DNA from: Chloroflexota bacterium
GTDB taxonomy: Bacteria > Chloroflexota > Anaerolineae > UBA4142
Reading direction: 5' to 3'
Assembly: GCA_016223105.1 (NCBI GenBank)
Contig: JACRPR010000083.1
Coordinates: 32,724 to 96,723, forward strand
DNA length: 64,000 nt
A program made the translations under genes and the position numbers. Shown in pieces: positions 1,291 to 24,528 of the stretch. The notes below the pieces were generated by a model, which searched no databases, had not been told where the DNA came from, and saw only the letters and a list, made by a program, of their open reading frames with translations. Within the stretch, counting starts at the first letter, position 1. Every line of letters starts with the position of its first letter.

Positions 1291-1291
1291 A

Positions 1292-10754: not shown

Positions 10755-10771
10755 CGTGCCTCCTTTGCACT

Positions 10772-10865
10772 GTCATTGCGAGGAGCATCGTGAGCGGAGT
10801 CGAACGATACGACGAAGCAATCTCCGATCTGAAAGTGGGGATTGCTTCGCTTTGCTCGCAATGAC
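10772..10865. repeat. MITE-like palindromic element (GTCATTGCGAG...CTCGCAATGAC family)
   Basis: The terminal inverted repeats are gtcattgcgag / ctcgcaatgac, with an internal gaagcaatc...gattgcttc pair. It sits between the exosortase stop and the start of its target gene. Confidence 0.8.
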
Positions 10866-10867
10866 AT

Positions 10868-12370
10868 TCATTTTTTGTTCAGATTGCGCGCAACCGCATC
10901 GCGCACCGCGCGGAAAAATGTTTGCAGTTCCAGCGTGTTCGGATCGCGCGCGTCGTTGAACAAAATCGAAACCAAGACCCAGCGTTTGGGCTGGAGCGTT
11001 ACATCATCCCAAATGCGCGTGCCGTAATCATCGGTTACGCGCTCCGCCGATTGAAACCAGTACGCCGCCGACCAGGTTTGTTGTTTGCGCGCATCGCCGA
11101 GCGCGACGCGAAGAACAGAAAAATCGGGCGCGACGAGAAAGGCGCGCGAGTCATTGATCGCGAGCCCGTACACTTCAAAGCATCGTTCGGGGCGATGATG
11201 CGCGCGCCAGGTCGCGCTCGTAACGAGAATCATCGAGCCGGACAGATCGCGCCAGGTGAAACGAAAGCGGTCGGCGCCTTCAGCATTATCGCGCATCAAC
11301 CAACGCAGTTCGTCCGGCTTGAGCGGCGCGGACTGCGCGATGATGTCGGCGGGAAACGTCCACGCAATTGTCGCCTGCGTCAACCCGGTTTGCGGGCGCG
11401 GCGTGTAGAGTAAACCCATCCCGAAAATTGCAACTATGAGAATCGCGCCAAGCCATGCGGAGTTGGAATTGAGATTGGAGATTGGAGCTTCGAGATTGAG
11501 CGATTGCGTCGGCAAGAGTCGCAACAACGCGACGGCGGCGGCGCACGCGATCACAAATCCCAAGACGCCGAGCGGAACGTGAATCATTTCCGCCGCGAGC
11601 CGCGCGTTCAACACTTGCCCGACGACGACCAGGATCGCGACGCGCGCGAGGTTCGTGATGAAAAGTAAAAGCGCAAACGCGATTGCGATCACGCACCAGC
11701 GCGCGTTGAGTGGTCGTCGTTCGATCCAGGTCGCGGCGATCAGAAACAGCGCGCCCGTCCACAAACTTTTGACGCCACTGCACGGCAGATCAATTTGCGA
11801 CACGCCATTTTCGAGAATCAAAATCGTGTCCACGCCAATCGAACCGATGCCCGCGAGCGCGAGCCCATCGCGCACGATGGACGCGGTGAGGATCCGCATG
11901 GGATAGCCGATGAACGTTTGCATATGTTCGCCGAACGGCAGAACGCCGACGATCAACAGTGCGGCGGGCAAACCCGCGCGCCAACGTTGCGGCGCGATCC
12001 ACAAACCGAGCAAGCCATAACTCGCGAGAAAAAAGATACTCGCGGAAATTGTGTTGATGTCGAGCCAGCGTTCGACGATGAGATACAAAATCGAACCGGC
12101 AAAAACCAGGATGAGCGCGGAGAGATGCCATCGAGGAAGCGCGTCGAATTTAAGCGACCATTTTTCTTTGCGCGCTTGCAACGCGATCAGAACGATCACG
12201 CCGACGAGGACGATTTGATTCGTGCGAAAATCTTCGTACGTGAAAATGATCGCGAGATAGGCGAACACGGCGCGATACAACCACAGCCACAATGCGAGGA
12301 TGAGCGCGTTCGCGGTGATGTGAGTTGCGCGAATCGAATTGGTTGGTGCGGAAGTTTCAAGCATTGCCAT
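10868..12370 (-). CDS. Exosortase fused to a C-terminal EpsI-like domain
   Basis: The polytopic N-terminal part carries an exosortase-type Cys motif (DLPCSGVKSLW). The C-terminal ~170 aa carry an EpsI-like HRPERCFEVYG motif. Confidence 0.75.
   Translation of the reverse strand: MAMLETSAPTNSIRATHITANALILALWLWLYRAVFAYLAIIFTYEDFRTNQIVLVGVIVLIALQARKEKWSLKFDALPRWHLSALILVFAGSILYLIVERWLDINTISASIFFLASYGLLGLWIAPQRWRAGLPAALLIVGVLPFGEHMQTFIGYPMRILTASIVRDGLALAGIGSIGVDTILILENGVSQIDLPCSGVKSLWTGALFLIAATWIERRPLNARWCVIAIAFALLLFITNLARVAILVVVGQVLNARLAAEMIHVPLGVLGFVIACAAAVALLRLLPTQSLNLEAPISNLNSNSAWLGAILIVAIFGMGLLYTPRPQTGLTQATIAWTFPADIIAQSAPLKPDELRWLMRDNAEGADRFRFTWRDLSGSMILVTSATWRAHHRPERCFEVYGLAINDSRAFLVAPDFSVLRVALGDARKQQTWSAAYWFQSAERVTDDYGTRIWDDVTLQPKRWVLVSILFNDARDPNTLELQTFFRAVRDAVARNLNKK
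11459..11500. repeat. AGATTGG-type heptamer run lying inside the exosortase CDS (linker)
   Basis: The run ggagttggaattgagattggagattggagcttcgagattgag is translated on the minus strand as LNLEAPISNLNSNS, between the exosortase and EpsI-like parts. Confidence 0.7.
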
Positions 12371-12423
12371 TTTCGATCATTATGCTAACGCTTTTGCGCG
12401 CACAAGTCAAGCACTCGGGTGCG

Positions 12424-12465
12424 AAAAAAAGAGACCTGGAAGGTTTGGAAAACCTTCCAGGTCTT
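12424..12465 (-). terminator. Rho-independent terminator candidate after the YCII-like gene
   Basis: The minus strand has a 14-bp perfect stem (agacctggaaggtt / aaccttccaggtct) followed by ttttttt. Confidence 0.65.
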
Positions 12466-12491
12466 GACATCGAAATCCAGCGGATACCACT

Positions 12492-12812
12492 TTACATCGC
12501 GTTGAATGTTTCGTACACAGTAATTTTTGCGCCGCCCAGAAAAACCGGGCAACTTTTGGCGAATTCAATCGCCGCGTTGAGCGAATCGGCTTTGATGACC
12601 GAGTATCCAGTTGCCATCGTGCCGACCGGACCGTCACTGACTTTGCCCTCTGCTGTGATGGTCTTGGCAGTTTGCGTAAACGGATTGCCTCCATCCACCA
12701 AATTGCTACCCAGTTTGCCCATCCACGCGCCCCAGTCTTGCATCACTTTATCTTTTTCCGCTTGGTTCGCGGGCATTCCACCACCGCTATAGAGTAACAC
12801 AAAATTTGCCAT
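12492..12812 (-). CDS. YCII-related (DGPF) domain protein
   Basis: MANFVLLYSGGG...GGNPF...GYSVIKADSLNAAIEFAKSCP. I chose the ATG at 12812 because it has a GGAGAA RBS. The listed 28-codon upstream extension is unsupported. Confidence 0.7.
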   Translation of the reverse strand: MANFVLLYSGGGMPANQAEKDKVMQDWGAWMGKLGSNLVDGGNPFTQTAKTITAEGKVSDGPVGTMATGYSVIKADSLNAAIEFAKSCPVFLGGAKITVYETFNAM

Positions 12813-13026
12813 CGTTTGTTCTCCTTCCAAAGTTTCTTGGAGTTGAGAAATCTTGACGCGCTCAAGAATCTGATCCAAGTGAATTGAGCATATCACAAAA
12901 GTTTCAATTTTGTATTAGAGCCAACCCTGCCAAGTATCAATTCTTTATTTGAAAATTCGCGTTGGTTTCGACACGAAAAGTTGTGCGGAAAAAAAGACGG
13001 CAGTCAACTTAATGACTGCCGTTGGA

Positions 13027-13040
13027 TGTGTCGGGGCGAG
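13027..13040. repeat. Degenerate third copy of the tRNA-Pro att core
   Basis: tgtg--tcggggcgag compares with the att core tgtgagtcggggcgag. It lies at the left edge of the low-G+C tract. Confidence 0.3.
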
Positions 13041-13149
13041 CTGATCTGGATTTGATAGTTTGCTGATCATGGTTTGTGAGATATTGAGTTAGCTCCAGTT
13101 GGGACAAATGGACTTGAAGATACCTCACTGGTATTCCTCGATCAAGCAT

Positions 13150-14076
13150 TTAGAAAGGGACGTCTTCGTCGATTTTGGAAGGTTGGGGTGGGGCAAATTC
13201 AATATTGATCCGAAATCGGTAATCATGGTATCGCGTTGGAGTATGCAGTCGCAATCGATACTGCAAGCCGCCATCAAACCAGCCTTCTTGAAATTCAAAA
13301 TGGATCTTGGCAAACTCAACAGCACTAGGAGGGAGACTGGGGACTTTGATTTCCAACCGATACTGTCTCACCAAACCATCTTCCGCATCAATTGCACTTG
13401 CCTTGAAGGATTCGATATTTCCCATAGGTCCTGAATGTATCGGGATATAAAGCGCATCTTCTGAAGTGAAAAGATACACATGGGTTATTCCACCTGCTAC
13501 TTCCAGGCTATCGTTCCTTATATGAATGGGCAAAACGAACCGTTTCGTCTTTATCGTTCCAGTTATTGTGGGATTTTCCCCTTCGGAGCCGATCTCTGGT
13601 ATCGCTTTCTCTAGGATCGTCACTGACAAGTGTTCGGAGGTTAGTGCCACTTTTCGGGCACGCGATTCTTCAATCGCCCATTGCAAAGTTGTAGCCAGTT
13701 CTTTTCTAAGTGTCTCTATCTTTCCAGCATAAACTGTGTGTTGTCTATGTTTCAGGTCAAATGGAATGTCATCAGCATTCTGCGTCAGAAGGAGAACGAG
13801 TTTTCCCAGCGCGTGAGCGTAACCAACCTCATAGAACACATTGGGATTCCTACCCGTCATATCAGCTACAATAACATCGGCTTTGTTGATCTGATTGAAT
13901 ATTCTGTCTAGTATTCCTTCAGAGAACTTTTGCTCATCTACGCGTTCCGCATATGCTCCAACATCATCCGCTGCGCCTTTGATGCCAAACTGGTAGATGT
14001 CGTTAAACTTAGAGTCAAATGGCATCAGTACGAAAACGATAGGTTTAGGACGAGTAGATTTCGAAATGTCAGCCAT
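13150..14076 (-). CDS. Nucleoside 2-deoxyribosyltransferase-like / TIR-like Rossmannoid domain protein with an unknown beta-rich C-terminal domain
   Basis: The N-terminal part reads IVFVLMPFDSKFNDIY...ADVIVADMTGRNPNVFYEVGYAHALGKLVLLL, i.e. an MPF..., NxNV.YE.G.A.A.GK pattern. The C-terminal ~160 aa have no motif I recognise. The gene is low in G+C. Confidence 0.45.
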   Translation of the reverse strand: MADISKSTRPKPIVFVLMPFDSKFNDIYQFGIKGAADDVGAYAERVDEQKFSEGILDRIFNQINKADVIVADMTGRNPNVFYEVGYAHALGKLVLLLTQNADDIPFDLKHRQHTVYAGKIETLRKELATTLQWAIEESRARKVALTSEHLSVTILEKAIPEIGSEGENPTITGTIKTKRFVLPIHIRNDSLEVAGGITHVYLFTSEDALYIPIHSGPMGNIESFKASAIDAEDGLVRQYRLEIKVPSLPPSAVEFAKIHFEFQEGWFDGGLQYRLRLHTPTRYHDYRFRINIEFAPPQPSKIDEDVPF

Positions 14077-14318
14077 TGTAGTGCCTTTTCAAATTGAGCA
14101 TCTGAGTTGTTTGATTCATCATGATTGACACGTAAATTTGCAGATGGACCCTGTGCTGATGAAAAACACGCTGATCACACCAATACCATTTTTTATTTGT
14201 CTTCCCACTTTCGCGAGTAAGTGTGTTCCAATCTATTTCTTGTTCCCGATTTTCTTTTAACCGCAGACTCTACATTGCAGAAAACCCGCAGAATCTTTGC
14301 GTCTGATTCTACGGGTAT

Positions 14319-14344
14319 TGTGAGTCGGGGCGAGAGGACTTGAA
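14319..14344. repeat. att site (left), a 26-bp direct repeat of the tRNA-Pro 3' end
   Basis: tgtgagtcggggcgagaggacttgaa is identical to 24450-24475. Confidence 0.9.
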
Positions 14345-14426
14345 AAAGGTCTTTTTTTTGGATGACCCATTTTGAACCAGGTCGAGTCAACGGTAAGGAA
14401 TGACATCTGTTTTGGTTGACCTCGTA

Positions 14427-15308
14427 TCATTCACCTGGCATGTTGTCCAAAAACGAAAGTTGCTTGTAGGTTTGTCGGATTCGCTCGAGCGACGTGGACA
14501 CGTAAATCATTGTGGTTGTGATATCTTCGTGACCCAGGAGCGTTTGCAAGTCGTGAATGTTTCCACCACGATCAAGATAGTTTGTTGCGAAGGTGTGCCG
14601 AAGCGCGTGAGTGCTGACATTTACGCCGGCGGTTTTTGCGACACGCTTGATGATTTTGTAGATCGCGGGTGCGTTCATTGGCTTGCCGTGTCGTGATGTG
14701 AATAGGGCTGTTACTCCTGGTTGTGCTCTTCGTTCGTTTATCCACTTTTCAAGTTCCTTGGTTGTCTTCTTCGCGAAAATCACCCATCTCTCTTTATCAC
14801 CCTTTCCGTGTTTGACGTGTGCCATTCCTCGCACAAGGTCTAGGTCATCAATTTCGAGTTGTGCGACTTCTCCGCGTCTCATTCCAGAGTCTAGGATGAG
14901 AAAAATGATTGCGCGATCGCGTGTAGCGGTTTCTGCCGAAATGAGTTTGTGAATTTGGTCGGGTGGTAAGCATTTCGGTAGTTTGTGTGGCTTCTTGGGG
15001 ATAATAAATCCAATGTTGGGATTGTCGGTGACGATTCCTGTTTCGTGAATCCATCGTGCGAAGGTTCTGATCGTCTTGGCTCTCTGCCGTATCGTTGTTG
15101 GCGAGAGTTTTTTTTCGCAATCGCGCAGGTGACTGACATATTCATTCAAGATTTTTGATGTGACGATCTCGATGTTGGTACTGTGATGTTTTTCAAGCCA
15201 TCGAGCGAGTAGTGAAAGTTGGCGTGAGTAGGTTTTGATCGCGTTAGGGTTGCATTCGCGTTTTTCTCGATTGTTCAAAAAGTTTTGAATGACGGCGAAG
15301 ATTTCCAA
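14427..15308 (-). CDS. Tyrosine recombinase / phage integrase
   Basis: Has an N-terminal SAM-like core-binding region. The catalytic motifs are ...DSGMRRGE..., HALRHTFATNYL and LLGHEDITTTMIY. The start is TTG with a GAGGA RBS. Confidence 0.9.
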   Translation of the reverse strand: MEIFAVIQNFLNNREKRECNPNAIKTYSRQLSLLARWLEKHHSTNIEIVTSKILNEYVSHLRDCEKKLSPTTIRQRAKTIRTFARWIHETGIVTDNPNIGFIIPKKPHKLPKCLPPDQIHKLISAETATRDRAIIFLILDSGMRRGEVAQLEIDDLDLVRGMAHVKHGKGDKERWVIFAKKTTKELEKWINERRAQPGVTALFTSRHGKPMNAPAIYKIIKRVAKTAGVNVSTHALRHTFATNYLDRGGNIHDLQTLLGHEDITTTMIYVSTSLERIRQTYKQLSFLDNMPGE

Positions 15309-15374
15309 GTGTGATCCTCGATTGAATGATGGGTGATTGTGCCCACATTATATCAAATTTCTGGAGGTGGTTCG

Positions 15375-15686
15375 ATGCAAGTGTCGGGTTTGATTATGAA
15401 GAGTCGCTCGTCTGCGTACCCAAACAAAAAGACTGGTGAGTTGATCCACATGGTCTATTTTGATTTGTATGACGACACGGCGGGTCTGATTCAGTGTGAA
15501 ATTAAGGCGAATGGCGCGGAGCCGCCGGATGGTTCGAAGGTTGTCGGCGATGTGCAGTTCCTGCGCAAGATCGCGTTTGGTCAAGGTGTGTCGGTCGCGC
15601 TCAAGTCGTTTCGTGTGCTCGATGTCAAATCGGATGCGCCGGGTTGGGTGCCGCCGCTTCCGCCGGGTGTGGGTCCGAAAAAGTAG
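15375..15686 (+). CDS. Hypothetical 103-aa protein (ssDNA-binding protein by position only)
   Basis: ATG with a GGAGGTG RBS. It is the first gene of the plus-strand module and is small, soluble and beta-rich in appearance, with a Pro-rich tail. I recognised no motif. Confidence 0.4.
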   Translation: MQVSGLIMKSRSSAYPNKKTGELIHMVYFDLYDDTAGLIQCEIKANGAEPPDGSKVVGDVQFLRKIAFGQGVSVALKSFRVLDVKSDAPGWVPPLPPGVGPKK

Positions 15687-15689
15687 AAA

Positions 15690-16004
15690 ATGTTTCCAAG
15701 TTCTGTGCTGACCGGGACACTTGTAAGCGCGTTGGGTGATCAATCATCTTTTGCGCTTTACTATACGGTCCCGACGAGCGGTTTGCTTGCGGCAACGTTG
15801 GGTATGTTGCTCATTCTCACGTTGTTCATTATTGCGAATCGTTTGCAAATGTGGGCAATTCTGTATTCGATTATCTTGGCGATGTTCTTCGTTCCGTTTG
15901 CGACAACGGCGTATGCGCCTTCTGTGGTGGTTATGTGTTTGATCGCGCTGGTTGTTGTCCTGGTTGGTCGGTTCTTCGTCAAGGTGCTGGGCTGGGGGAC
16001 GTGA
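15690..16004 (+). CDS. Small integral membrane protein (3-4 TM)
   Basis: 104 aa, very hydrophobic, tightly packed with its neighbours. Confidence 0.5.
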   Translation: MFPSSVLTGTLVSALGDQSSFALYYTVPTSGLLAATLGMLLILTLFIIANRLQMWAILYSIILAMFFVPFATTAYAPSVVVMCLIALVVVLVGRFFVKVLGWGT

Positions 16005-16159
16005 TGACGCTTCCAAATTGGACGTTTAACGAAGTGATGATTGAAGTCACGAACTTTTTGCAAAATTCGGTTGTGGCTGGTTTGGTGATGACATCGCTTG
16101 CGTTGTCGGTCGTCAGTTTGCTCGTTTCGACTTTGCAAAACATTTTTCGGCGTCAGTAG
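16004..16159 (+). CDS. Small single-TM protein (51 aa), coat-protein-like layout
   Basis: The ATG overlaps the upstream TGA (GTGATGA). The sequence is MTLPNWTFNEVMIEVTNFLQNSVVAGLVMTSLALSVVSLLVSTLQNIFRRQ: an acidic N-terminus, a hydrophobic core and a basic C-terminus. It is below the ORF-track cutoff as a separate ORF. Confidence 0.45.
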   Translation: MTLPNWTFNEVMIEVTNFLQNSVVAGLVMTSLALSVVSLLVSTLQNIFRRQ

Positions 16160-16213
16160 TTGGCGGGTTCGTGCCGCTTTCTATAAATCTGATATCGAAG
16201 GGAGGTGAGAACA

Positions 16214-16378
16214 ATGTTTGGTACCGGCTTTTCGCTCGGATTCACGATTTCGGATATTCAAACTCAAGTTTCGATGTTGCTCGCGAATGCGGTCGTGCTT
16301 GGTCTGGTCGCTGGTTCGTTGGCGCTGACGATCACTCCACGGATTATCGGTGTTGTGAAGGGCATGTGGCGGCACTAG
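16214..16378 (+). CDS. Small single-TM protein (54 aa), major-coat-protein-like layout
   Basis: Not in the ORF track (<60 aa). It has a strong RBS (GGGAGGTGAGAACA-ATG). The sequence is MFGTGFSLGFTISDIQTQVSMLLANAVVLGLVAGSLALTITPRIIGVVKGMWRH. Confidence 0.5.
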   Translation: MFGTGFSLGFTISDIQTQVSMLLANAVVLGLVAGSLALTITPRIIGVVKGMWRH

Positions 16379-16449
16379 GCGCGATTCGCGCGATTTTCTG
16401 ATTGTCTGGGGGTTCGTTGTTTGAATCCCCAGATTTACGAGGTGTAGAC

Positions 16450-16605
16450 GTGGCGGCTCCCACTCTTCCCAGTTTGTGGACTGATGTTTTGACCCAACTG
16501 AATACGTTCCTGGCTTGGGATGTCGTCAAGGGTTATATCGTGTTATCTCTTGGCATGTCGTTTGGTGCTTTGGCTCTCCGCATGCTGGGTCGCGCGGTTC
16601 GGTAA
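16450..16605 (+). CDS. Small single-TM protein (51 aa), paralog of 16651-16836
   Basis: GTG start with a GAGGTG RBS. It shares the FLAWDVVKGYIVLSLG...RMLGRAVR pattern with the next gene. Confidence 0.45.
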   Translation: MAAPTLPSLWTDVLTQLNTFLAWDVVKGYIVLSLGMSFGALALRMLGRAVR

Positions 16606-16650
16606 TTTGTGGGGCGGTCTTTGATCGCCCTACATTTGTTGAGGTGATAG

Positions 16651-16836
16651 ATGATTCCATTTCAAGGTTTGTTTGGTGCAGGTGCGTTTCAGTGGGAAGC
16701 TGGTTATGGATTATCTGGTGTGTTTAACATGCTTTCCGCTATTTTGGCATGGGATGTTGTGCGTGGTTCGTTGGTTTTTATTCTCACGCTGGCGTTGGTT
16801 GGTCAGGTGATTTCGATGATGCGAGGTGTTAGATGA
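16651..16836 (+). CDS. Small single-TM protein (61 aa), paralog of 16450-16605
   Basis: ATG with a GAGGTG RBS. It contains ILAWDVVRGSLVFILTLALVGQVISMMRGVR. Confidence 0.5.
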   Translation: MIPFQGLFGAGAFQWEAGYGLSGVFNMLSAILAWDVVRGSLVFILTLALVGQVISMMRGVR

Positions 16837-17081
16837 ATTGGAATGCAATGCTGTTTGATCCAACTGTTTTTACTGATCATCTCAAGACCTGGTTTGCCGC
16901 GTTGTTGGGTGTCTATAATGCCGGTGGTAATGGTATGTTGACACCTTATATTTTGTTTTCTATCGCCTTGATGATTGCTGGCTCGATCCTGGTTACATTT
17001 CGTCGAGCAACTTCTGGCAAATCGGATTTGGCTCAACCGCAACAGCAACAGCAAAAACAGAATCAATGGCGAGGTGATTGA
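16833..17081 (+). CDS. Small membrane protein with a Q-rich C-terminus
   Basis: 82 aa. Its start overlaps the upstream stop (ATGA). It has one or two TM segments and a QPQQQQQKQNQ tail. Confidence 0.5.
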   Translation: MNWNAMLFDPTVFTDHLKTWFAALLGVYNAGGNGMLTPYILFSIALMIAGSILVTFRRATSGKSDLAQPQQQQQKQNQWRGD

Positions 17082-18223
17082 TGCGGATCGCACTATTTTC
17101 GTGTCTAGTTTGCCTGGTGCTCGCGGTGGTGTGGTTTGCTGTGCCTGGTGTTGGGGCACAAGGTATTTATCCGTTCAATGGCGAGTTTGATTATGGTTTG
17201 TCTGGTTGGACCACTTACAGTTCTACTCTGACTTCATCTTATTGTTATACGGGGCAGTGCGTATACTTTCCTCAGTTGTATTCTTCATTGTTTTCAAATC
17301 CGTTTATTGTTGGCAATGGTAGTCTTGTTTTGTGGGGTCGTGCTGTTTCATCGACACTCAATGTTCATATTTATGCAATTGATTTTTCAAATTCTGCGTT
17401 GCCTCAATATTACATAACTACTACAGTTTTCAGTTCCTCTGGATTGGTTAAGGCAATTCCTGTTCCGTCGGCGATTGTTGATCACGCGATTCAATTGCTC
17501 TTTGTGATTTATGATTCTTCATCTGGTGCTGGTTCGTTGGATCATATTTATTTGACGTCTGCAATTGGGTATGGTTTTCCCTATGGCGCAAATACTCCAA
17601 TTCCGATCAATTGGTCTGGCTATCCTACTCCTGTCCCTTATCCGACATTTCCTGCATTCCCAACCGCGATTTCAAATGTCAACAACACGACGAATAACAC
17701 GACGAACAACACGACGAACAATAACACGTACGGTGGTATCTCCGGCGCGACGATCAACGTGACTGGTGGTCTCACGTTGAATATGACACCTTTTCCGTAC
17801 GGTGCTGGTACTCCAATGCCGATCTACGATGCGTCCACGCGGACGCCAACGCCTACGCCGGTGTCGCAAGCTCAAGCGGCTCAACGTTTGGCATGGTCGT
17901 CTGCTCCTGGCACTCCTCAATTCTATATTAATCCGTCTTCGCCGGCGTCTGCGGGTGATTTGTCGTTGGGTGCTGGGACAAATTCGGCGAGTCCGTTTGA
18001 CTTGGTGATGACTGAAGAACTTTTGAATTATGATTTCAAGTTTTCTGATTTGGGTTACCCTTACACCACGATCACCTTTGGCTTACCTGATTGGCATTTC
18101 ATTGTTCATTACAAGTATCCGACAAAATTTATTTTTGCGGGTGAAGATTTGTTGAATCAGGTTTATGCGATTATGGGTTTGTTCTACTTCGCGACGTGCT
18201 TGACGGTTATTCGTAAAGGATGA
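17078..18223 (+). CDS. Secreted, C-terminally anchored protein with a low-complexity NNTT linker (pIII/adsorption-protein-like architecture)
   Basis: Signal peptide: MMRIALFSCLVCLVLAVVWFAVPGVGAQG. Linker: NVNNTTNNTTNNTTNNNT. C-terminal hydrophobic anchor: VYAIMGLFYFATCLTVIRKG. Confidence 0.55.
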   Translation: MMRIALFSCLVCLVLAVVWFAVPGVGAQGIYPFNGEFDYGLSGWTTYSSTLTSSYCYTGQCVYFPQLYSSLFSNPFIVGNGSLVLWGRAVSSTLNVHIYAIDFSNSALPQYYITTTVFSSSGLVKAIPVPSAIVDHAIQLLFVIYDSSSGAGSLDHIYLTSAIGYGFPYGANTPIPINWSGYPTPVPYPTFPAFPTAISNVNNTTNNTTNNTTNNNTYGGISGATINVTGGLTLNMTPFPYGAGTPMPIYDASTRTPTPTPVSQAQAAQRLAWSSAPGTPQFYINPSSPASAGDLSLGAGTNSASPFDLVMTEELLNYDFKFSDLGYPYTTITFGLPDWHFIVHYKYPTKFIFAGEDLLNQVYAIMGLFYFATCLTVIRKG

Positions 18224-18227
18224 TTCG

Positions 18228-18365
18228 ATGACTCCTCTCGAGATCACAGTTTACTTTCCTGCTCCGCCGAATGTGTTTTACGCATTTGTCCTTTTGACTT
18301 CGGTGATGACGATTGTCTGGGTTGCCAAATTTGTGATTCGTCTTGTAACCGGCTTTTCCTCATGA
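18228..18365 (+). CDS. Small TM protein (45 aa)
   Basis: Not in the ORF track. The sequence is MTPLEITVYFPAPPNVFYAFVLLTSVMTIVWVAKFVIRLVTGFSS. It lies 5 nt after the upstream stop. Confidence 0.35.
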   Translation: MTPLEITVYFPAPPNVFYAFVLLTSVMTIVWVAKFVIRLVTGFSS

Positions 18366-18481
18366 ACTCGCCCGGCTTTTTCTATTCTAATCTCATAGCA
18401 AGTGGGATTGTTGGTATGTTCTGTTTTCTGATTTGTTTCAATATTGTCGAGGTGATCTCAAACGATGTTCCTCGCCGCTGA
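18362..18481 (+). CDS. Small TM protein (39 aa)
   Basis: Not in the ORF track. The sequence is MNSPGFFYSNLIASGIVGMFCFLICFNIVEVISNDVPRR. It overlaps both neighbours by a few nt. Confidence 0.3.
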   Translation: MNSPGFFYSNLIASGIVGMFCFLICFNIVEVISNDVPRR

Positions 18482-19259
18482 TAAATTTTTCCAAGAGTTG
18501 ATGGGGATTCGATCCTGCGCGCTGACTGGGCATGTTGGTTCTGGAAAAACTCTCGGTGCGATTGCGATTGCGTGTGAGTTACTGCGGCGGCAATTCGTCT
18601 CTGGTGTGTGGGGCAATCTGAATCATTCGTTACCTCATTCTGAATCGCTCGAGCGGTCCTGCATTATTTTGGATGAAGCATCCATTGTGATGGACTCGCG
18701 CTGGTCATCGGTCTGCTTCGATCTCTACGGTTCGTTTGTCCGCAAGTACAAGGGTGTCTATCTTTATCCGTCTGTGCACCAGGTTGACAAGCGCGCGCGC
18801 AATCTCGAAGTGATGCGTTTGGTAGATATTGACACGATTCCTTTTTTGCGAACCTGGGTTTATCGCTGGGAATCTACATCGGGGGCAAAGGGCACTTTTT
18901 TTCTTCTTCGTCCTCAAGAATATTTCGACTATTACGATCACGAATTTGTTCCGACTAGTGACGGTGGGACGCTCGAGGCGTTGTGCTCGATGTATCCTGA
19001 AACGGTCAATGAGATTTTAGAATCTCGGTCGGGTAAACGATTGCAGAGGTTGATGGGTTATGACACTGGATCACGTTCTGGCGGTTCGCGTTCTGTATCT
19101 GGTAGTGTGGTTTCTGGTCTTTCGGAGCGTGTGGAACGACTTGAAGCAGAGTTAGAAAATGTAAGGATGATGGTTTATGGACTCACCGGTAACATTGAGT
19201 CAACGTCTAATGGCGCAAGCCAAGGCGAAGCAACAGCAATTGAGCGATGGCGCGCCTAA
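18465..19259 (+). CDS. P-loop NTPase, Zot / inovirus pI-like assembly ATPase candidate
   Basis: Walker A (LTGHVGSGKT) lies near the N-terminus and Walker B is SCIILDEAS. ATG with a GAGGTG RBS. The position after the pIII-like gene and small TM genes matches inovirus order. The call is by motif and position only. Confidence 0.55.
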   Translation: MFLAADKFFQELMGIRSCALTGHVGSGKTLGAIAIACELLRRQFVSGVWGNLNHSLPHSESLERSCIILDEASIVMDSRWSSVCFDLYGSFVRKYKGVYLYPSVHQVDKRARNLEVMRLVDIDTIPFLRTWVYRWESTSGAKGTFFLLRPQEYFDYYDHEFVPTSDGGTLEALCSMYPETVNEILESRSGKRLQRLMGYDTGSRSGGSRSVSGSVVSGLSERVERLEAELENVRMMVYGLTGNIESTSNGASQGEATAIERWRA

Positions 19260-20052
19260 GCAATTGAAAGAGTACGGTACTGTCAATGATGATTCGGCGA
19301 AAGGTCGCCGATGGCAGATGCTTTTTTTCGTTGTGATTCCGCTGATTTGTGTTTGTATCGCGGTCTGGTTCGGTTTTGGTGGTGGATCCCAAGCCGCGGT
19401 AGATGCCAGTAAGCCAGTAGGTGCTTCAACAATTGCGCCGGCAAATCTCGATTCAATTGTGCAAGGTAGTCAGTTTGCTTTTGCCTCGCCGCCGGCGCAG
19501 AAAGTTGCTCAAGCAGTTACACCCGATTCGCGGATTCGTTGTTATGCGATTCGCGATACGGTTTCGATCTCGAATGTAATTATTTACAAAGAAGGTTTGT
19601 TCTTGGCTGATCGTTGGTCCCGTGTGAACGGTGGTTTGCTTGGTTCGAAGACTGCCGGCTGGTTTCCTGCAACTGATTTTGGGTGCCAAGGTGATCTTAC
19701 TTCTCTCGAAGTTGAATATATGATGCCTGTGCCTTCTCCGACTGCAACAAAGCGTGTGGTTGTGATTGTTCCGACGAAAATACCGACATCATTTCCGACT
19801 GCAACTTTATCGCCGACATTAGCGAATGGAATTCTTCGCCTCGATGCAAGTGGTTGTGATGTGTCCTGGTTGGTCTGGAATGCTCAAGCGGTTTGGATTG
19901 AGTATGCCGGTAAGCGTGAAGGTGTTGCCGGTGATTCTGCTGGCAAGCCGATTTTTCGTTCGATGTGTCCATATACCGGCACAGTCAAGCTTGATGCTTG
20001 GATGAAAGATGGCACGCGTCAAAATCGTTCGGTTTCGCTTGGAGGTCAGTGA
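19177..20052 (+). CDS. Single-pass membrane protein with an extracytoplasmic domain
   Basis: The TM segment is WQMLFFVVIPLICVCIAVWFGFGG. The gene overlaps the 3' end of the ATPase gene by 83 nt in another frame. Confidence 0.5.
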   Translation: MDSPVTLSQRLMAQAKAKQQQLSDGAPKQLKEYGTVNDDSAKGRRWQMLFFVVIPLICVCIAVWFGFGGGSQAAVDASKPVGASTIAPANLDSIVQGSQFAFASPPAQKVAQAVTPDSRIRCYAIRDTVSISNVIIYKEGLFLADRWSRVNGGLLGSKTAGWFPATDFGCQGDLTSLEVEYMMPVPSPTATKRVVVIVPTKIPTSFPTATLSPTLANGILRLDASGCDVSWLVWNAQAVWIEYAGKREGVAGDSAGKPIFRSMCPYTGTVKLDAWMKDGTRQNRSVSLGGQ

Positions 20053-20056
20053 TCGT

Positions 20057-20112
20057 GGGGGCGGCGGTCGGCGGGCGGGGACCCCTCTGGGGTGCCCGAC
20101 GACCGCGCCCCC
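20057..20112 (+). other. GC-rich imperfect hairpin in the intergenic region upstream of rep (packaging signal / origin / terminator candidate)
   Basis: The arms gggggcggcggtcggcgggc...gcccgacgaccgcgccccc enclose a ggggacccctctggggt tip. A second 10-bp-stem hairpin lies at 20156-20188. Confidence 0.5.
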
Positions 20113-20202
20113 TTGGTACTATATGCGAAATTTGCGTCCACTTTGGTCAGTGCTTTTTTCGTGTCTTCGGTCGAGGATGACACGAAAATAGTCTAATCGA
20201 AG

Positions 20203-21282
20203 TTGTGGGGGGGGGTAGTGGATGATCGGCTAAGGCGGGTTCAAAGATGGATTCTCCAAAGTGCCGCTAGAGAGCTGATGCCGAAAGAATTAGTGTTCAA
20301 GTGTTTACGGTGGTGGATTCCGAAATCTGTTTTCATTGATGTGCTCTACTCTGCGCGAGTGCAACGCGCACATTACAAAAATCTGATGGTGTGTGCGTCG
20401 GTCTGGATGTGTCCGATTTGCTCTGCAAAAATCAGTGAGCGTCGGCGAGTAGAGTTGGCCGGGGCGATTGATGCGAATGCGGATGAATTACAAGTTGCGT
20501 TGGTGTCGTTCACTCTGCATCATTCTGCGAAAGATAGTTTGAAAGTCATGTTGAATCGTCTGCTTGAATCGTATCGCGAATTGAAATCGGGGCGAACCTG
20601 GAAAGATTTCTCGCAAGAATCTCTTCTGGTTGGTTCTATTCGTTCGCTTGAAACGACGTACGGCGTGAATGGTTGGCATCCGCATTTGCATGTTCTGATG
20701 TTCTTTTGTAAGGGTGCAAATCTTGATGCTGTTGAGGAGTTTCTTAAAACGCGTTGGCTTTATGTGCTTGATCGTAATGGCGCAACGGCCTCGTATCGTC
20801 GCGGTGTGGACTTTCGGACGGCTGATCGTGATGTTGCAGAATATGTCGCCAAGTTTGGTCACGAGCCGGTGAATCTCAAGCGTCCTGGTAAGTGGACTAT
20901 GGAACACGAATTGACAAAAGGTGTTGCCAAGATCGCGCGTGGTGCAAAAGGAAAATCGCCGACTCAACTGCTTGCTGATTTTGTGGATGGTGATCGAGCA
21001 TCTGCGATGTTGTGGCAAGAGTACGCGCGTGCGTTCAAGGGCAAGCGTCAATTGGTGTGGTCCCGAGGTTTGCGGACTAAACTCGGGTTGGGTTACGAAG
21101 AAACAGATGAAGCGATCGCCAAGCGTGAAGATGAACAAGCGGTTCGATTATTGTCGCTGACGTTGCGACAATGGCGGACCGTGCTCGGTAATGATGCTCG
21201 CGGCGAAGTGTTGGAGATTGCAAGTTCTGGAGATCGTGACCAGGTCTTGGAGTTTCTCGAAAGGATTGGCGCATGCGATTGA
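20203..21282 (+). CDS. Rolling-circle replication initiator, HUH superfamily (pC194/phiX174-like Rep)
   Basis: Motif 1-like is LVSFTLHH. The HUH motif is [13 protein letters not shown]. The Tyr motif is VAEYVAKFG. An N-terminal CPIC zinc-finger-like pair is present. The start is uncertain (TTG 20203 to ATG 20278). Confidence 0.8.
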
Positions 21283-21611
21283 ATGTTGCGGATCGCTTTT
21301 GGGCGAAGGTGACCAGGTCTGCCGATTGTTGGTTGTGGCAATCAGAACGCGACGAAAAGGGCTATGGTCGGTTTCTGTATCTTGGTCGCAAAATGAATGC
21401 ACATCGGGTTGCGTGGTTGGTCACATTCGGCGAGATTAAACCTGGTTTGCAAGTGTGCCACAAGTGCGACAATTCATCGTGTGTAAATCCAGCGCATCTT
21501 TTTCTCGGCACGGTGCAAGACAATTTCAATGATGCGGTCCTTAAGCATCGGCGGTATTCACGATACCTGGTTGGAGTGATGCCAGGTCAAATCAGAATGG
21601 AGGGCTTATGA
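21273..21611 (+). CDS. HNH endonuclease (HNH_3-type)
   Basis: Contains GYGRF...AHRVAW...[24 protein letters not shown]. Confidence 0.75.
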
Positions 21612-21772
21612 AGTGGAGATGAAAAAAATATCGCGGTCGAGTTGGCTACTCGCCGCGACAAATTCCAACGGGTGAGCGTTGGAACTGTGGAGATTATATC
21701 ACGGTTTCATTCGCGCACCAAGTGGCGCGTTTTTTATTTCGTGTTTTCGACGATTCACAATGGAGGTGTGAA

Positions 21773-21991
21773 ATGTCTGTTCGTGTTCTTGATCCGATTG
21801 CGGAATTACGTTGGGTGTGCAAGATTTTGGATATGGTTTGTAATTGTGCTTTTCCGCAGGATCGTGAAGCGCTGAAAGATTTCCAGGTTATTTTGATTCA
21901 AGCGTCCTGGAAAGTTGGCGTGTTGCTTGAGCGTGTTGATAGCGAATTGAACCCGGTTTCCGAGTCTTCGGATGATGAACTCCCGTTCTAG
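21773..21991 (+). CDS. Hypothetical protein (72 aa)
   Basis: ATG with a GGAGGTG RBS and an acidic C-terminus. No motif recognised. Confidence 0.35.
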   Translation: MSVRVLDPIAELRWVCKILDMVCNCAFPQDREALKDFQVILIQASWKVGVLLERVDSELNPVSESSDDELPF

Positions 21992-22041
21992 TCGGCGAGC
22001 GTCTACAGCGTTTCTGCGGGGCAAAACGGTTTTCGAGTCCT

Positions 22042-22686
22042 GTGATACCTGGGGCGAAAAATCGCTTTTCTCGACGCACAACAAAACGCAACAAAACGGG
22101 CGGAAAATGTCAATTTTGGGTTTCCGACGGAAAGTTGAAATTGAGCATTGAGTGGGGTAGGGCAAGCGTGAAATTTCAGTCAAAAAACCAACTTGCGGCA
22201 AAGTTAAAATGGTCTCTCGGCGAGGTGCGTGCGTTTCAAAAAACCTTGCGCGATTTTCGGCGAATGTTGAATTACGACAATCGCGACCTGGCTCAAGCGT
22301 TGGACTATTCGACGGCGTATGTGCGAATGATGCAAGGGCATTGGAATTGCACGCGACAACCGTCCCAGGAATTTGTAATTCGCTTCAATGCGTTTCGTTC
22401 AACCTCGCCGAAGGCAAAACCAGGTTTCGCGTCTGTTGCGGTTTATGATCCCAATGAACATTCGATCCCGATGTCGCGGATTCTCGCCGCGTTCAAACAA
22501 TGTCCCGAATGTGTTTGGGAAATGCACAAGGGGTATCGCGATGAACGTGAGACCTGGTGGGCAATGCGGGTCCCGCAACAGCGATATCACTCAAAGGATC
22601 ATCGGCACGCGGCGGCATTGCGTCGGCGAAGGAAACGACAAAAGCAACAAAGGGAGAATCGCAAAAAACCAGGACGAAAAAAATAG
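22042..22686 (+). CDS. Hypothetical protein with an HTH-like middle region, a CPEC pair and a highly basic tail
   Basis: The HTH-like region is NRDLAQALDYSTAYVRMMQG. It also has QCPECVW and a C-terminal RRRRKRQKQQRENRKKPGRKK. The start is uncertain. Confidence 0.4.
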   Translation: MIPGAKNRFSRRTTKRNKTGGKCQFWVSDGKLKLSIEWGRASVKFQSKNQLAAKLKWSLGEVRAFQKTLRDFRRMLNYDNRDLAQALDYSTAYVRMMQGHWNCTRQPSQEFVIRFNAFRSTSPKAKPGFASVAVYDPNEHSIPMSRILAAFKQCPECVWEMHKGYRDERETWWAMRVPQQRYHSKDHRHAAALRRRRKRQKQQRENRKKPGRKK

Positions 22687-22796
22687 TTCGTCGTCGAGAG
22701 TTGCGATCTTGACGACGAACGTCCAACTTTGCGCGGTGTGGGAGGGGACTCCGATCCGCGCGAAATGATTCTACCACAAATTTAAAAGGGGACAAA

Positions 22797-23024
22797 ATGT
22801 CGAACAAGAAAAAATCACGCAAGGGGTTTGCGAGTGATGCGGTCGTTTACCGTGTGTCTGCAGTTGCTGGTAAACATCGTGTTCGGTGTGTGGAATGTAA
22901 TGCAGTGATTCCGGAGGGACAACCGTTTGAACGTTTTGGGACTCGTGATCCCGATTCTGGCGGTGTTGAATACTGGGTTAACGTGTGCCTGGCATCGGTT
23001 AACAAAGTGCTGGGGAGGGCGTAG
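22797..23024 (+). CDS. Hypothetical small protein
   Basis: 75 aa, with a CVECN motif and an RBS-like AAAGGGGA upstream. Confidence 0.35.
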   Translation: MSNKKKSRKGFASDAVVYRVSAVAGKHRVRCVECNAVIPEGQPFERFGTRDPDSGGVEYWVNVCLASVNKVLGRA

Positions 23025-23025
23025 T

Positions 23026-23250
23026 ATGGCAACTGTTCGGAGTGGTGTACGGTTCGACATGTTCGGGAAAAATGTTTGTGATATGTGTTCGAACCTGGTC
23101 AAGCAAAGCGGCGGTCGCGGGCGTGTGCGTCGCTATTGCTCGAATCGTTGCAAAATGCGGGCGCGTAATCAGCGCGTTGCTCAAGAACGTTTGGAACGTC
23201 ATCGTGCTCGGTATGCCGCGTTTCGTCGTCGAGAGGATGCACGCAAATAA
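23026..23250 (+). CDS. Small zinc-ribbon-like basic protein
   Basis: ATG at 23026 with a GGGGAGGG RBS. It contains CDMC...RRYCSNRCKMRARN. Confidence 0.4.
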   Translation: MATVRSGVRFDMFGKNVCDMCSNLVKQSGGRGRVRRYCSNRCKMRARNQRVAQERLERHRARYAAFRRREDARK

Positions 23251-23336
23251 AGTGTTTATCGCCGGCGAATGACACGCTTTAACGTAGATCGGGATGGGTG
23301 TTGTGCCTGTCCCGGTTTTATTTTCTCAATCTCTCT

Positions 23337-23354
23337 TTCTTCTTTTCTTGATTT
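23337..23354 (+). promoter_or_regulatory. Candidate RCR double-strand-origin nick motif (TTCTTCTTTTCTTGATTT)
   Basis: A CTTGAT core (23347-23352) sits in a polypyrimidine tract within the ~400-nt non-coding gap of the element. It resembles the CTTG/ATA nick core of pC194/pUB110/phiX174-type origins (recalled from the literature, not searched). Confidence 0.35.
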
Positions 23355-23658
23355 GCTCCTTTTCTTTTCTCTTAAAAAATTAAAATAAAAAAAATACCTT
23401 ATTCTCCACCGGTTTAGATTTCAACGGTTGTGCTTATTGTCTATGAATGGATCAGGTTGACCACGCGATTTTTGATTCTGTAAAATGGATGTATCGAGAG
23501 CGGTTTACGTCCCGATAATTTCTCTCAGATGGTGTGCCCACATTCTGGGTAAGGGATAGTGCATCAACCGTGAGTCAAACAATGTCTGTGCTGGTTTGGT
23601 GTTGTGCTCTAAATGATTTCTGGGGTTGTTACTTTCTCGAGATAGCCTATACGGTCTT

Positions 23659-24054
23659 TCATTGGTGGATGAGTGTTAGGATTACTATTAGGATGGTTGT
23701 ATAGATTGCCAGGACTCCTAGGGCAAGGATTTCAAGGACAATGATTTGTTGTATGGTGAGAGGAAACTTAAAGGTGGATACTGTTGGTGCCGTGTAGGTG
23801 ATTGATGCTGGTCGCGGCGCGTGTTGCTCGCGCTCGGCGAGCATGTGTGGATGCTTTTCTGCGTGGCAATTCTCACAAAGAGTTTGGAGATTGTTGGGGT
23901 GATTTGTTCCACCGCGCGAGAGAGGAATGATGTGATGCGCGTGTAGAACCTCGTCGGTTGCTCCACACTCAACACAACGCATCCCATCGCGACGTTTGAC
24001 GAACCACGCGAGTCGCGTCCAATTTTCGGGATATGCCGAAAATTCGTGTGGCAT
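23659..24054 (-). CDS. HNH endonuclease with a C-terminal hydrophobic segment
   Basis: Contains CVECGATDEVLHAHHIIPLSRGGTNHPNNLQTLCENCHAEKH. The C-terminal segment is IIVLEILALGVLAIYTTILIVILTLI. It has a strong AAGGAG RBS. Confidence 0.75.
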   Translation of the reverse strand: MPHEFSAYPENWTRLAWFVKRRDGMRCVECGATDEVLHAHHIIPLSRGGTNHPNNLQTLCENCHAEKHPHMLAEREQHAPRPASITYTAPTVSTFKFPLTIQQIIVLEILALGVLAIYTTILIVILTLIHQ

Positions 24055-24107
24055 TTTTGCTCCTTGACAACTGTGGTGATCTGGGTATAATTTGACTGCA
24101 TAAGAAT

Positions 24108-24314
24108 TTATGCAGTCTTTTTTGGACCGTGTGCTGGGCGAACTTTGATTTTCTTCAATTCCAAAGGTGGGATGATGTATAGGTTGCCTTTTAACTCGGC
24201 AAGAATTTCTCCTCGCCGAATCTGTCTTCGGACCGTGTCGGTGTGTATTCCTCGCAATTCCGCGGCTTCACGGATTGTATATCCCATTGTTACGTTCTTT
24301 CTAGTTGGCGGCAT
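24108..24314 (-). CDS. Excisionase-like MerR/HTH_17 DNA-binding protein
   Basis: YTIREAAELRGIHTDTVRRQIRRGEI. It lies adjacent to the tRNA-side att. The start is at 24314 (RBS GAAGG) or 24287. Confidence 0.6.
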   Translation of the reverse strand: MPPTRKNVTMGYTIREAAELRGIHTDTVRRQIRRGEILAELKGNLYIIPPLELKKIKVRPAHGPKKTA

Positions 24315-24449
24315 GATGCGCCTTCTTTCGGTTCTCAATTGTAACATTTTGATTTGCTCCCTGCAAGGGGTGTAAAAATAGGCATAAGACGTTTGCGGCG
24401 TCTTATGCCTTTGTGCTTTGTGCGCCGATCCTTACCAAACGAATACGGC

Positions 24450-24475
24450 TGTGAGTCGGGGCGAGAGGACTTGAA
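24450..24475. repeat. att site (right), a 26-bp direct repeat overlapping the tRNA-Pro 3' end
   Basis: Identical to 14319-14344. It covers the last 20 nt of the tRNA plus 6 nt downstream. Confidence 0.9.
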
Positions 24476-24528
24476 CCTCCGACCTCAGCGTCCCGAACGC
24501 TGCGCGCTACCAACTGCGCTACGCCCCG
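24456..24528 (-). tRNA. tRNA-Pro (anticodon CGG)
   Basis: Manual cloverleaf, 73 nt: CGGGGCG-TA-GCGC-AGTTGGTA-GCGC-G-CAGCG-TTCGGGA-CGCTG-AGGTC-GGAGG-TTCAAGT-CCTCT-CGCCCCG-A. CCA is not encoded. Confidence 0.9.

Follow-up and report, generated by a model that had tools for sequence, protein, structure and literature searches.

A probable inovirus-like prophage in a Chloroflexota bacterium

Closest described systems

Inoviruses have been linked to Chloroflexota before, and the links that we found in the literature are computational or metagenomic predictions, without a cultured virus. Roux et al. (2019) reported eight inovirus species in Chloroflexi; these are prophages integrated in large contigs (one such host is Kallotenue papyrolyticum), with 11 CRISPR spacer hits. 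All eight were assigned to the proposed 'Densinoviridae', whose gene-dense genomes come mainly from Bacilli and Chloroflexi and to which former 'cryptic plasmids' of Bacilli also belong. Here we describe an element with a unit length of 10,131 bp, at positions 14319-24475 of a 64,000-nt stretch of contig JACRPR010000083.1 (the window; all positions are counted from its first letter). The host is Chloroflexi/Chloroflexota according to the NCBI record (locus tag HZC40_12065, 118.5-kb contig) and falls outside the Dehalococcoidia. In our view the region probably represents an inovirus-like (Tubulavirales-type) chronic phage that has integrated into the genome of that bacterium. An earlier note on this DNA, made without database searches, had recognized an inovirus-like gene order, which agrees with those of M13, Pf1, B5 and pBbsII as set out below; it had also suggested that a Chloroflexota-like host would make the pairing of virus and host a poorly documented one, a suggestion that the eight species of Roux et al. 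(2019) overturn. The novelty is thus modest: the kind of virus was already predicted for Chloroflexota, and this is a divergent, well-delimited further example. For Chloroflexota outside the Dehalococcoidia it supplies a complete inovirus-like prophage whose boundaries are exact, and it comes with two relatives, one circular and one integrated in a different tRNA gene. It is unusual in that Zot models fail to recognize its ATPase, in its four coat paralogs and in the separate protein proposed as membrane partner of the ATPase; the known picture of inoviruses is unchanged by it.

The closest annotated analogue is Brevibacillus brevis pBbsII (NZ_CP134051.1, 5,693 bp; our L045), with which the element shares its gene order: a small soluble protein, small transmembrane (TM) coat-like proteins, a large anchored protein, a small TM protein, a TM-less Zot-type ATPase, one open reading frame (ORF) and Rep_1. 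The Rep proteins are 35.5% identical, and the profile of the element's ATPase matches the pBbsII Zot at 94%. The element differs in being about twice the size and integrative (Int/Xis and a tRNA attachment (att) site), in having four coat paralogs and a 291-aa partner protein, and in that its ATPase is unrecognized by Pfam Zot. pBbsII carries a plasmid annotation, but its layout is that of a complete filamentous phage: a small soluble protein, three small TM proteins of which one is a classic signal-peptide coat, an anchored protein of 295 aa, a TM protein of 87 aa, a Zot of 229 aa and Rep_1. We infer that it belongs to the 'Densinoviridae'. To that group as a whole the element bears a likeness at the level of description, in gene density (21 genes in 10.1 kb), host, Rep_1 and a short Zot-type ATPase. 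Roux et al. (2019) define a complete inovirus prophage by a pI-like gene together with direct repeats, 10 bp or longer, that lie in a tRNA; the element fits this definition, with a pI-like gene and a 26-bp repeat in tRNA-Pro next to the integrase gene.

Propionibacterium phage B5 (Bifilivirus, Paulinoviridae), whose host is Gram-positive, has the order small structural proteins, large structural protein, small protein, Zot-like protein without a strong TM segment, and Rep directly after it. Its Rep is homologous to that of the element (24% identity), it too lacks a secretin, and its + strand has a similar G/T skew. However, B5 is 5.8 kb long and non-integrating, and its Orf8 matches Pfam Zot, whereas the ATPase family of the element shows no specific similarity to Orf8. 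Membership of the Paulinoviridae by gene content is ruled out, Rep alone being homologous and B5 Orf8 unmatched.

With M13 and Pf1 (Inoviridae) the element shares the order of a gene of the size of a single-stranded-DNA-binding protein (SSB), small coats, a pIII-like protein, a pVI-like protein and pI. The M13 pI is matched at 94% over 100 columns that include the motif after Walker B, and the terminator annotated after the coat gene of Pf1 has a likeness in a hairpin after the element's s67 gene. Unlike these phages, the element has no secretin (pIV), has Rep_1 instead of gpII, and carries a tyrosine integrase; its pI counterpart lacks the TM segment and the periplasmic part and is followed by a separate membrane protein, and the pI of Pf1 was unmatched (1%).

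Within Chloroflexota, IME1 of Dehalococcoides (bioRxiv 10.64898/2026.09.15.751708) resembles the element in its host phylum, its tRNA-adjacent integration by a tyrosine recombinase, its pI-like ATPase, its several small TM proteins, its HNH accessory genes and its lack of tailed-phage hallmarks. IME1 is described there as 21-28 kb long, with a primase-helicase, a serine resolvase, a large metallophosphoesterase-type coding sequence and a proposed double-stranded DNA genome, and its criteria also include a size of ~23 kb and a terminal Cro/C1 repressor. Membership is ruled out on these published criteria: the element is 10.1 kb long, has a rolling-circle replication (RCR) Rep, and showed none of those domains in Pfam scans.

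Boundaries, morphogenesis module and Rep

The 26-bp repeats that the earlier note had placed around the element are exact at both ends: copies of TGTGAGTCGGGGCGAGAGGACTTGAA stand at 14319-14344 and 24450-24475, and by chance such a pair would be expected ~1e-8 times in 15 kb. The final 21 nt of a tRNA-Pro(CGG) gene, which was absent from the note, lie within the right copy. The target is thus a tRNA attachment site of the classical kind, with tRNA-Pro restored by the repeat.

14319-14344, no strand: attL, left copy of the exact 26-bp direct repeat
24450-24475, no strand: attR, right copy of the repeat, consisting of 21 nt of tRNA 3' end plus 5 nt
24455-24528, - strand: tRNA-Pro(CGG), integration target (ARAGORN; Rfam RF00005, 67.7 bits)

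Base composition sets the element apart from the high-GC host DNA that flanks it on both sides, with a GC content of 0.45-0.50 inside and 0.57-0.61 in the remainder of the window; the low-GC tract begins near 12000, ~2.3 kb left of attL. The + strand is enriched in G (28.5%) and T (30.2%), giving a GC skew of +0.17 and an AT skew of -0.18 (phage B5: +0.18 and -0.28), and this skew is restricted to the element. The 21 genes have a median length of 89 aa, make 87% of the element coding, and lie on the + strand in 18 cases. The three on the - strand are those for the integrase, one HNH nuclease and Xis; int and xis become adjacent across attP once the element is circularized, and the minus-strand genes would form a single leftward unit across attP of the circular form. 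The ORFs are all intact and the att repeats identical, and to judge from the sequence the prophage is probably still functional.

Two sister elements are complete, making three complete members with the window element, and in both the morphogenesis module is entire and its gene order unchanged. L016 (JGI Ga0233425_10009788) is 10.9 kb long and bounded by 48-nt repeats (96% identical) at the 3' end of a tRNA-Gly(GCC) gene; its orthologs, in the same order, are Int, the 104-aa protein, the four coat paralogs, the 381-aa protein, the 45-aa protein, the ATPase (48%), the 291-aa protein (41%), three small regulators and Xis. L020 (Logan SRR25436083_17500, 1-11848) has identical 30-nt contig ends and is therefore read as a circular molecule of 11,818 bp; nothing of the set is missing from it, its 103-aa protein being 38% identical (E 8e-17), its Rep 58% and its ATPase 44%. 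The module and the adjoining replication region comprise the following features.

15375-15686, + strand: soluble protein, 103 aa (117 aa from GTG 15333), no TM; ribosome-binding site GGAGGTG before ATG 15375
15690-16004, + strand: polytopic membrane protein, 104 aa, about three hydrophobic segments (hydropathy; orthologs in L016 and L020)
16004-16159, + strand: s51, coat-like, paralog member 1 (orthologs 51% in L016, 45% in L020)
16214-16378, + strand: s54, coat-like, paralog member 2 (orthologs 53% in L016 and L020; cross-matches s51 orthologs)
16402-16605, + strand: s67, coat-like, paralog member 3 (64% ortholog in L020; hidden Markov model (HMM) cross-detection with s51 and s54)
16608-16634, + strand: GC hairpin with T-rich tail directly after the s67 stop, terminator- or attenuator-like (z -4.5)
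16651-16836, + strand: s61, coat-like, paralog member 4 (hydropathy, paralogy)
16833-17081, + strand: single-TM protein, 82 aa, Q-rich tail (positional orthologs in L016, 148 aa, and L020, 86 aa)
17078-18223, + strand: adsorption- or cap-like protein, 381 aa, pIII-like architecture (signal peptide, linker, C-terminal TM anchor)
18228-18365, + strand: single-TM protein, 45 aa, conserved YFPAPP motif (orthologs in seven loci)
18362-18481, + strand: single-TM protein, 39 aa, overlapping the ATPase start
18465-19259, + strand: pI/Zot-like morphogenesis ATPase, 264 aa (Walker A at residue 22, Walker B ILDE, VDKRAR, C-terminal coiled coil)
19177-20052, + strand: single-pass membrane protein, 291 aa (TM at residues ~43-71)
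20057-20112, no strand: 57-nt GC-rich hairpin at the boundary of morphogenesis module and rep (dG -30 kcal/mol, z -6.1, 0/200 shuffles fold as well)
20153-20191, no strand: second hairpin upstream of rep (z -4.5)
20203-21282, + strand: Rep_1-family HUH rolling-circle initiator (NCBI start 20278)

Eight membrane proteins and the 381-aa protein lie between 15690 and 18481. The block of small membrane proteins suggested in the earlier note is real, although its 'at least seven' becomes eight: seven short single-TM proteins of 39-82 aa and the polytopic 104-aa protein, all conserved in the sisters, with ribosome-binding sites of the GGAGGTG type before most small genes. Four of the single-TM proteins (s51, s54, s67 and s61) form one paralog family, HMMs built from one pair detecting the other pair, and these tandem ~50-aa coat paralogs have a common layout of acidic N-terminus, one TM segment and basic C-terminus. 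The hairpin right after the s67 stop codon is present in all three complete elements. Because this conserved 3' hairpin parallels the terminator annotated after the coat gene of Pf1, we nominate s67 as the best candidate for the major coat gene; its true start may lie downstream of the annotated one. An additional gene in L020 (2446-2979) encodes a 177-aa protein whose signal peptide and coat-paralog-like C-terminus give it the look of a coat protein that displays a domain.

The signal peptide, low-complexity linker and C-terminal anchor that had been attributed to the 381-aa protein were all seen, the linker being N/T-rich and set between FPYGxxTPxP repeats. This protein had no Pfam or PHROG match, and its orthologs in L016, L020, L005, L011 and L012 are 29-48% identical. 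The 39-aa protein keeps its position, length and hydrophobicity in L004 and L020, with poor sequence conservation.

Fragmentary relatives extend the pattern: L004-L006 and L011-L015 keep the large protein, the 45-aa YFPAPP protein, the tiny TM protein, the ATPase and the ~290-aa membrane protein. Compared with L004, differences at codon positions 1/2/3 number 16/8/27 in the 45-aa gene and 61/51/129 in the ATPase gene, a pattern of purifying selection. Since the orthologs occur in the same order and show this third-position excess, the small ORFs are real and conserved. The related elements contain no capsid or conjugation genes in the ORFs scanned. In L042, a divergent member of the ATPase family again stands in an inovirus-like array, together with genes of 50-79 aa and one for a 796-aa protein. 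In L041, ACN-rich repeats with 18-nt periodicity (1-310 and 2227-2330) encode T/P-rich peptides in two genes near a divergent relative of the ATPase.

On profile and modelled-fold comparisons the P-loop ATPase is pI/Zot-like but divergent. The Walker A motif lies near the N-terminus, as the earlier note had it, and the note's Zot/pI-like label draws support from profile-profile (97%) and fold comparison and none from direct Pfam and PHROG scans. Probabilities from hhalign for the ATPase family profile against each named target were as follows; the pI/Zot alignment consisted of five sequences (M13, Pf1, PMBT54, blackswan219-6 and one Zot-annotated metagenomic protein), and the Thermus phage IN93 (NC_004462) supplied a packaging-ATPase control.

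pI/Zot alignment: 97.0%, E 1e-10, 98 columns
plectrovirus SpV1 ORF2: 95.6%
Brevibacillus pBbsII Zot (NCBI-annotated): 94.2%
M13 pI: 94.1%, 100 columns
blackswan219-6 Zot: 68.5%
HRPV-1 VP8: 60.6%
plasmavirus L2 ORF3: 55.5%
IN93 packaging ATPase: 23.7%
phage B5 Orf8: 7%
F-plasmid TraC (VirB4): 3.3%
F-plasmid SopA (ParA): 2.5%
F-plasmid TraD (type IV coupling protein): 1.4%
Pf1 pI: 1%

The 97% match takes in the Walker A and Walker B motifs and reaches as far as VDKxAR, and the three F-plasmid matches are limited to the P-loop; with ParA, VirB4 and TraD at 1-3%, the ATPase does not group with partition or conjugation ATPases. An AlphaFold model built from 125 sequences (pLDDT 87) was searched against BFVD, where the top named matches were 'Zonular occludens toxin [Inoviridae sp.]' at 2.9e-8, 5.1e-7 and 1.1e-3, and where AMDV2_16 (archaeal-type) and plasmavirus L2 ORF3 were also among the top matches. 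An HMM search of the family against PDB sequences gave P-loop noise alone.

The size of the ATPase family emerged from profile searching. A word-indexed homolog search found three homologs, and its repetition with a deep ATPase alignment returned seven proteins, with P-loop words dominating. An exhaustive profile search found 531 metagenomic relatives, 310 of them at E <= 1e-10; these were counted among cluster representatives at 50% identity, so that the family has at least 531 members. They are mostly 200-290 aa long, with Walker A near residue 22 and mostly (on a crude scale) without a TM segment. The ATPase had no tblastn match in 50,697 GenBank phage records or in 72,556 PLSDB plasmids, and a GTDB genome scan for it found no relative. 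A sizeable family of short, TM-less, pI-like ATPases thus escapes direct Zot-model searches, and such searches would therefore miss this lineage.

The single-pass protein that the earlier note had seen after the ATPase is 291 aa long. It always follows the ATPase directly, with orthologs at 35-48% in L004, L012/13, L016 and L020, and we infer that it is the membrane partner of the ATPase and may compensate for the missing TM segment. We also considered a programmed frameshift joining the two ORFs and dropped it, as their overlap is not conserved (~4 nt in L016).

The HUH rolling-circle Rep is likewise borne out by the profiles (Rep_1, PF01446, 1.5e-12, 48.0 bits against a cutoff of 33.2; phrog_11698, 5e-71). 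It has the motifs FTLHH, HPHLHVL and YVAKF, and HPHLH and YxxK (H136, H138, Y189, K192) are invariant across 14 homologs. Among phage records its relatives are Tubulavirales only: blackswan219-6 (36% identity), Pseudomonas PMBT54 (34%) and B5 and other Bifilivirus (24%; for B5 over 87% of the length). The hairpin at 20057-20112 is a candidate packaging signal, single-strand origin or terminator, and L004 has analogous GC hairpins at the same place.

Proposed cycle and competing readings

For an inovirus-like phage, the genes suggest the following cycle. Int and Xis would excise the element as a 10.1-kb circle; Rep would nick the + strand and start rolling-circle replication, yielding G+T-rich + strand single-stranded DNA (ssDNA). 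This would be passed to a membrane assembly site formed by the ATPase and its 291-aa partner, possibly coated on the way by the 103-aa protein, and there the membrane-inserted coat paralogs, with the s67 product as the best major coat candidate, would replace any cytoplasmic coating. The filament would be extruded without lysis, capped by the 381-aa, 45-aa and 39-aa proteins. A secretin would be unnecessary because the host, as we propose, has no outer membrane. The RCR Rep, the + strand G/T skew, the hairpins, the absence of detected lysis genes and the circular sister contig are indirect evidence consistent with the predicted ssDNA genome and extruded filamentous virion. The coat paralogs and the ATPase partner are concrete targets for studying filament assembly in bacteria without an outer membrane.

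Searches of the 21 element ORFs with Pfam and PHROGs gave no match to capsid, tail, secretin, lysis, relaxase, type IV secretion system (T4SS), partition or conjugation families. The only 'terminase small subunit' match among the PHROGs is the HNH domain of the nuclease at 23659-24054, so the absence of capsid, terminase, tail and secretin genes noted earlier stands.

Several results weigh against the inovirus-like reading. First, direct Pfam and PHROG scans of the ATPase gave no Zot match at E <= 0.1, and just two of 125 family members matched Zot; Foldseek against the PDB returned generic RecA/KaiC/P4-type ATPases (E ~1e-4); and B5 Orf8 was unmatched (BLASTP E 0.86, hhalign 7%). Second, the ATPase has no TM segment (the maximum 19-aa hydropathy, 1.15, lies in the P-loop helix). 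Roux et al. (2019) retained as genuine pI those proteins whose closest Pfam domain is Zot and which have 1-2 TM domains, and the ATPase would probably fail both filters and be discarded; a strong TM segment is likewise missing in B5 Orf8 and the 229-aa pBbsII Zot. Third, IMG/VR pattern scans with two ATPase alignments and Rep found no relative. Fourth, the 103-aa protein, to which the earlier note gave a gene-V-like ssDNA-binding role, showed no similarity to M13 gV, the SSBs of Pf1 and PMBT54, the 98-aa protein of pBbsII or F SSB (BLASTP, PDB, hhalign). Fifth, the Rep clade is also found in small RCR plasmids and in ~7-kb integrative elements that lack the ATPase; the replication module of L016 is different and possibly primase-type (a weak RepB-primase-like match); and the origin search gave no confident nick site in the element.

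Two rejected candidates belong to these last points. A resemblance of the 103-aa protein to M13 gV, seen by eye, failed in BLASTP, PDB search and hhalign, and its identity as gene V was given up; its orthologs are clear in L020 (38%, E 8e-17) and weak in L016 (E 0.001), and by position and size range alone it may still be an ssDNA-binding protein. CTTGAT at 23347 was considered as a nick site; it is the sole intergenic copy, but with eight copies in the element and no conservation near rep in related phages it is a weak candidate that we do not claim.

A possible objection is that the region is not viral, or is only a relic: it could be an integrative RCR plasmid or a mobilizable island whose membrane-protein and ATPase module has a role unconnected with virions or has ceased to work. 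The Rep lends itself to this interpretation: it is 34-38% identical to the Reps of 147 small, mostly non-mobilizable RCR plasmids, and so as close to these as to inovirus Reps, and 59-61% identical to those of the ~7-kb Int/Xis/PrimPol elements. GTDB loci found via Rep contained neither the ATPase nor Zot, so Rep is a promiscuous module and no evidence of a virus on its own. The boundary between plasmids and inoviruses is moreover tenuous (Roux et al. 2019), none of the structural proteins has a match in Pfam or PHROGs, and the IMG/VR scans came back empty. Yet the 11-gene membrane/ATPase module is kept in order, under purifying selection, across different Reps and tRNA targets, the morphogenesis module being the stable core and the replication modules being exchanged, a pattern typical of inoviruses. 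The intact ORFs and identical att repeats speak against a relic, and a plasmid or mobilizable island sits poorly with an ATPase that matched none of the 72,556 plasmids and is unlike partition and conjugation ATPases, and with Pfam scans that detected no relaxase, T4SS or partition gene. We regard the non-viral reading as unlikely.

Some side observations concern these replication modules. L004 has another HUH Rep, with a weak match to PF23343. At the start of its non-homologous replication module, L016 has a 48-nt direct repeat (6327-6374 and 6951-6998, 92% identical, 624 nt apart) that may be iteron- or origin-like. The ~7-kb elements are represented by L019 (5114-12016 of JGI Ga0484001_0000043), which adjoins tRNA-Arg(CCT), and L022 (Verrucomicrobia contig CAIQQM010000238.1, from a metagenome-assembled genome); their order is Xis, small ORFs, a 318-326-aa protein, Prim-Pol, Rep_1 and Int, and they are a different element type, with Rep in common and no pI-like ATPase.

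A second objection is that the virus is pleomorphic and buds from the membrane, as pleolipoviruses and plasmaviruses do. The small TM proteins and the 381-aa protein as spike would then sit in a lipid vesicle around the genome, and the ATPase would be a VP8-like NTPase. The alphapleolipovirus HRPV-1 and plasmavirus L2 do resemble the element in their small circular genomes, anchored spike, TM-less NTPase and non-lytic release, and HRPV-1 has the same coarse layout of RCR Rep, small membrane protein, anchored signal-peptide spike, small ORFs and TM-less NTPase. The ATPase profile matches of 61% to HRPV-1 VP8 and 56% to L2 ORF3 are not negligible and count against the inovirus-like reading too; L2 ORF3 and AMDV2_16 are among the top fold matches, and the same ambiguity was raised for Chloroflexota elements in the IME1 preprint (bioRxiv 10.64898/2026.09.15.751708). 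However, the pI-type matches are better and cover more columns (M13 94% over 100 columns, SpV1 96%, the pI alignment 97%), four tandem ~50-aa acidic-TM-basic proteins are the inovirus coat signature used by Roux et al. (2019) and have no like in the budding viruses, and the gene order is identical to that of the Zot-bearing pBbsII. HRPV-1 also shows no skew comparable to the + strand G/T enrichment that the element has in common with B5, and the hosts of HRPV-1 and L2 are archaeal or mollicute. Budding is thus an improbable explanation.

A bolder version of the inovirus-like reading is that the element and its sisters form a distinct, family-level lineage of filamentous viruses overlooked by current inovirus detection, marked by a TM-less, Zot-invisible ATPase, a separate membrane partner and maybe a heteropolymeric four-coat filament; we offer this only tentatively.

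Integration, regulatory and accessory genes, and the left flank

The tyrosine integrase, the two HNH nucleases, the small Zn-ribbon/helix-turn-helix (HTH) proteins and the Xis-like gene of the earlier note were all recovered, with Pfam matches for the integrase, the nucleases and HTH_17.

14427-15308, - strand: tyrosine integrase, 293 aa, XerC/D-like, 83 nt from attL (PF00589)
21273-21611, + strand: HNH_3 homing-type endonuclease, accessory (Pfam, PHROG)
21722-21991, + strand: acidic protein, 89 aa (ORF only)
22042-22686, + strand: basic protein, 214 aa, probable regulator with a weak HTH (weak L016 ortholog is HTH_31)
22797-23024, + strand: Zn-ribbon-like protein, 75 aa (orthologs in L016 and L004)
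23026-23250, + strand: Zn-ribbon/basic protein, 74 aa, revised start (phrog_16925, 1.4e-4)
23251-23658, no strand: largest non-coding region, 408 nt (terminator-like hairpin at 23286-23318, pyrimidine-rich tract)
23659-24054, - strand: HNH endonuclease, 131 aa, C-terminal TM, accessory (PF01844, 1.4e-12)
24108-24347, - strand: excisionase-type HTH_17 protein, 79 aa (PF12728, 2.1e-6)
24380-24410, no strand: hairpin between xis and attR, perfect 12-bp stem, terminator-like on both strands

The integrase matches PF00589 with 139 bits (1.6e-40), three SAM-like N-terminal models and the phrog_1 integrase (5e-53), and has orthologs in L016 and L020; Xis-type orthologs at 49-51% adjoin the att sites of the same two elements. 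We consider both HNH genes (PF13392, 5.6e-12, and PF01844, 1.4e-12) accessory, as they have no counterpart in these sisters. The nuclease at 23659-24054 has a strongly hydrophobic C-terminal segment (residues ~104-129), which is unusual in HNH nucleases. The acidic 89-aa protein had no family match in Pfam and PHROG scans. The ORF annotated at 22927-23250 most likely starts at 23026; its L016 match is confined to residues 34-80. Taken as a whole, the 408-nt non-coding region has a fold no more stable than those of shuffled sequences (z +0.5). Between the HNH gene and xis, at 24064-24117 on the + strand, lies a perfect sigma-70 consensus (TTGACA, 16 nt, TATAAT; 12/12), directly followed by a hairpin and T-run at 24094-24117; this promoter runs antisense to xis.

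Directly left of attL, positions 12000-14318 form a low-GC islet (0.45-0.48). It contains a gene at 13150-14076 on the - strand for a 308-aa protein with a nucleoside 2-deoxyribosyltransferase/TIR-like domain (PF05014, 2e-7; PADLOC TIR effector, 2.9e-11), and at 13025-13050 a degenerate att-like copy that is identical at 18 of 26 positions and has GTCGGGGCGAG in common with the repeat. An older insertion into this tRNA-Pro, carrying a defence-type gene, may have left the islet behind.

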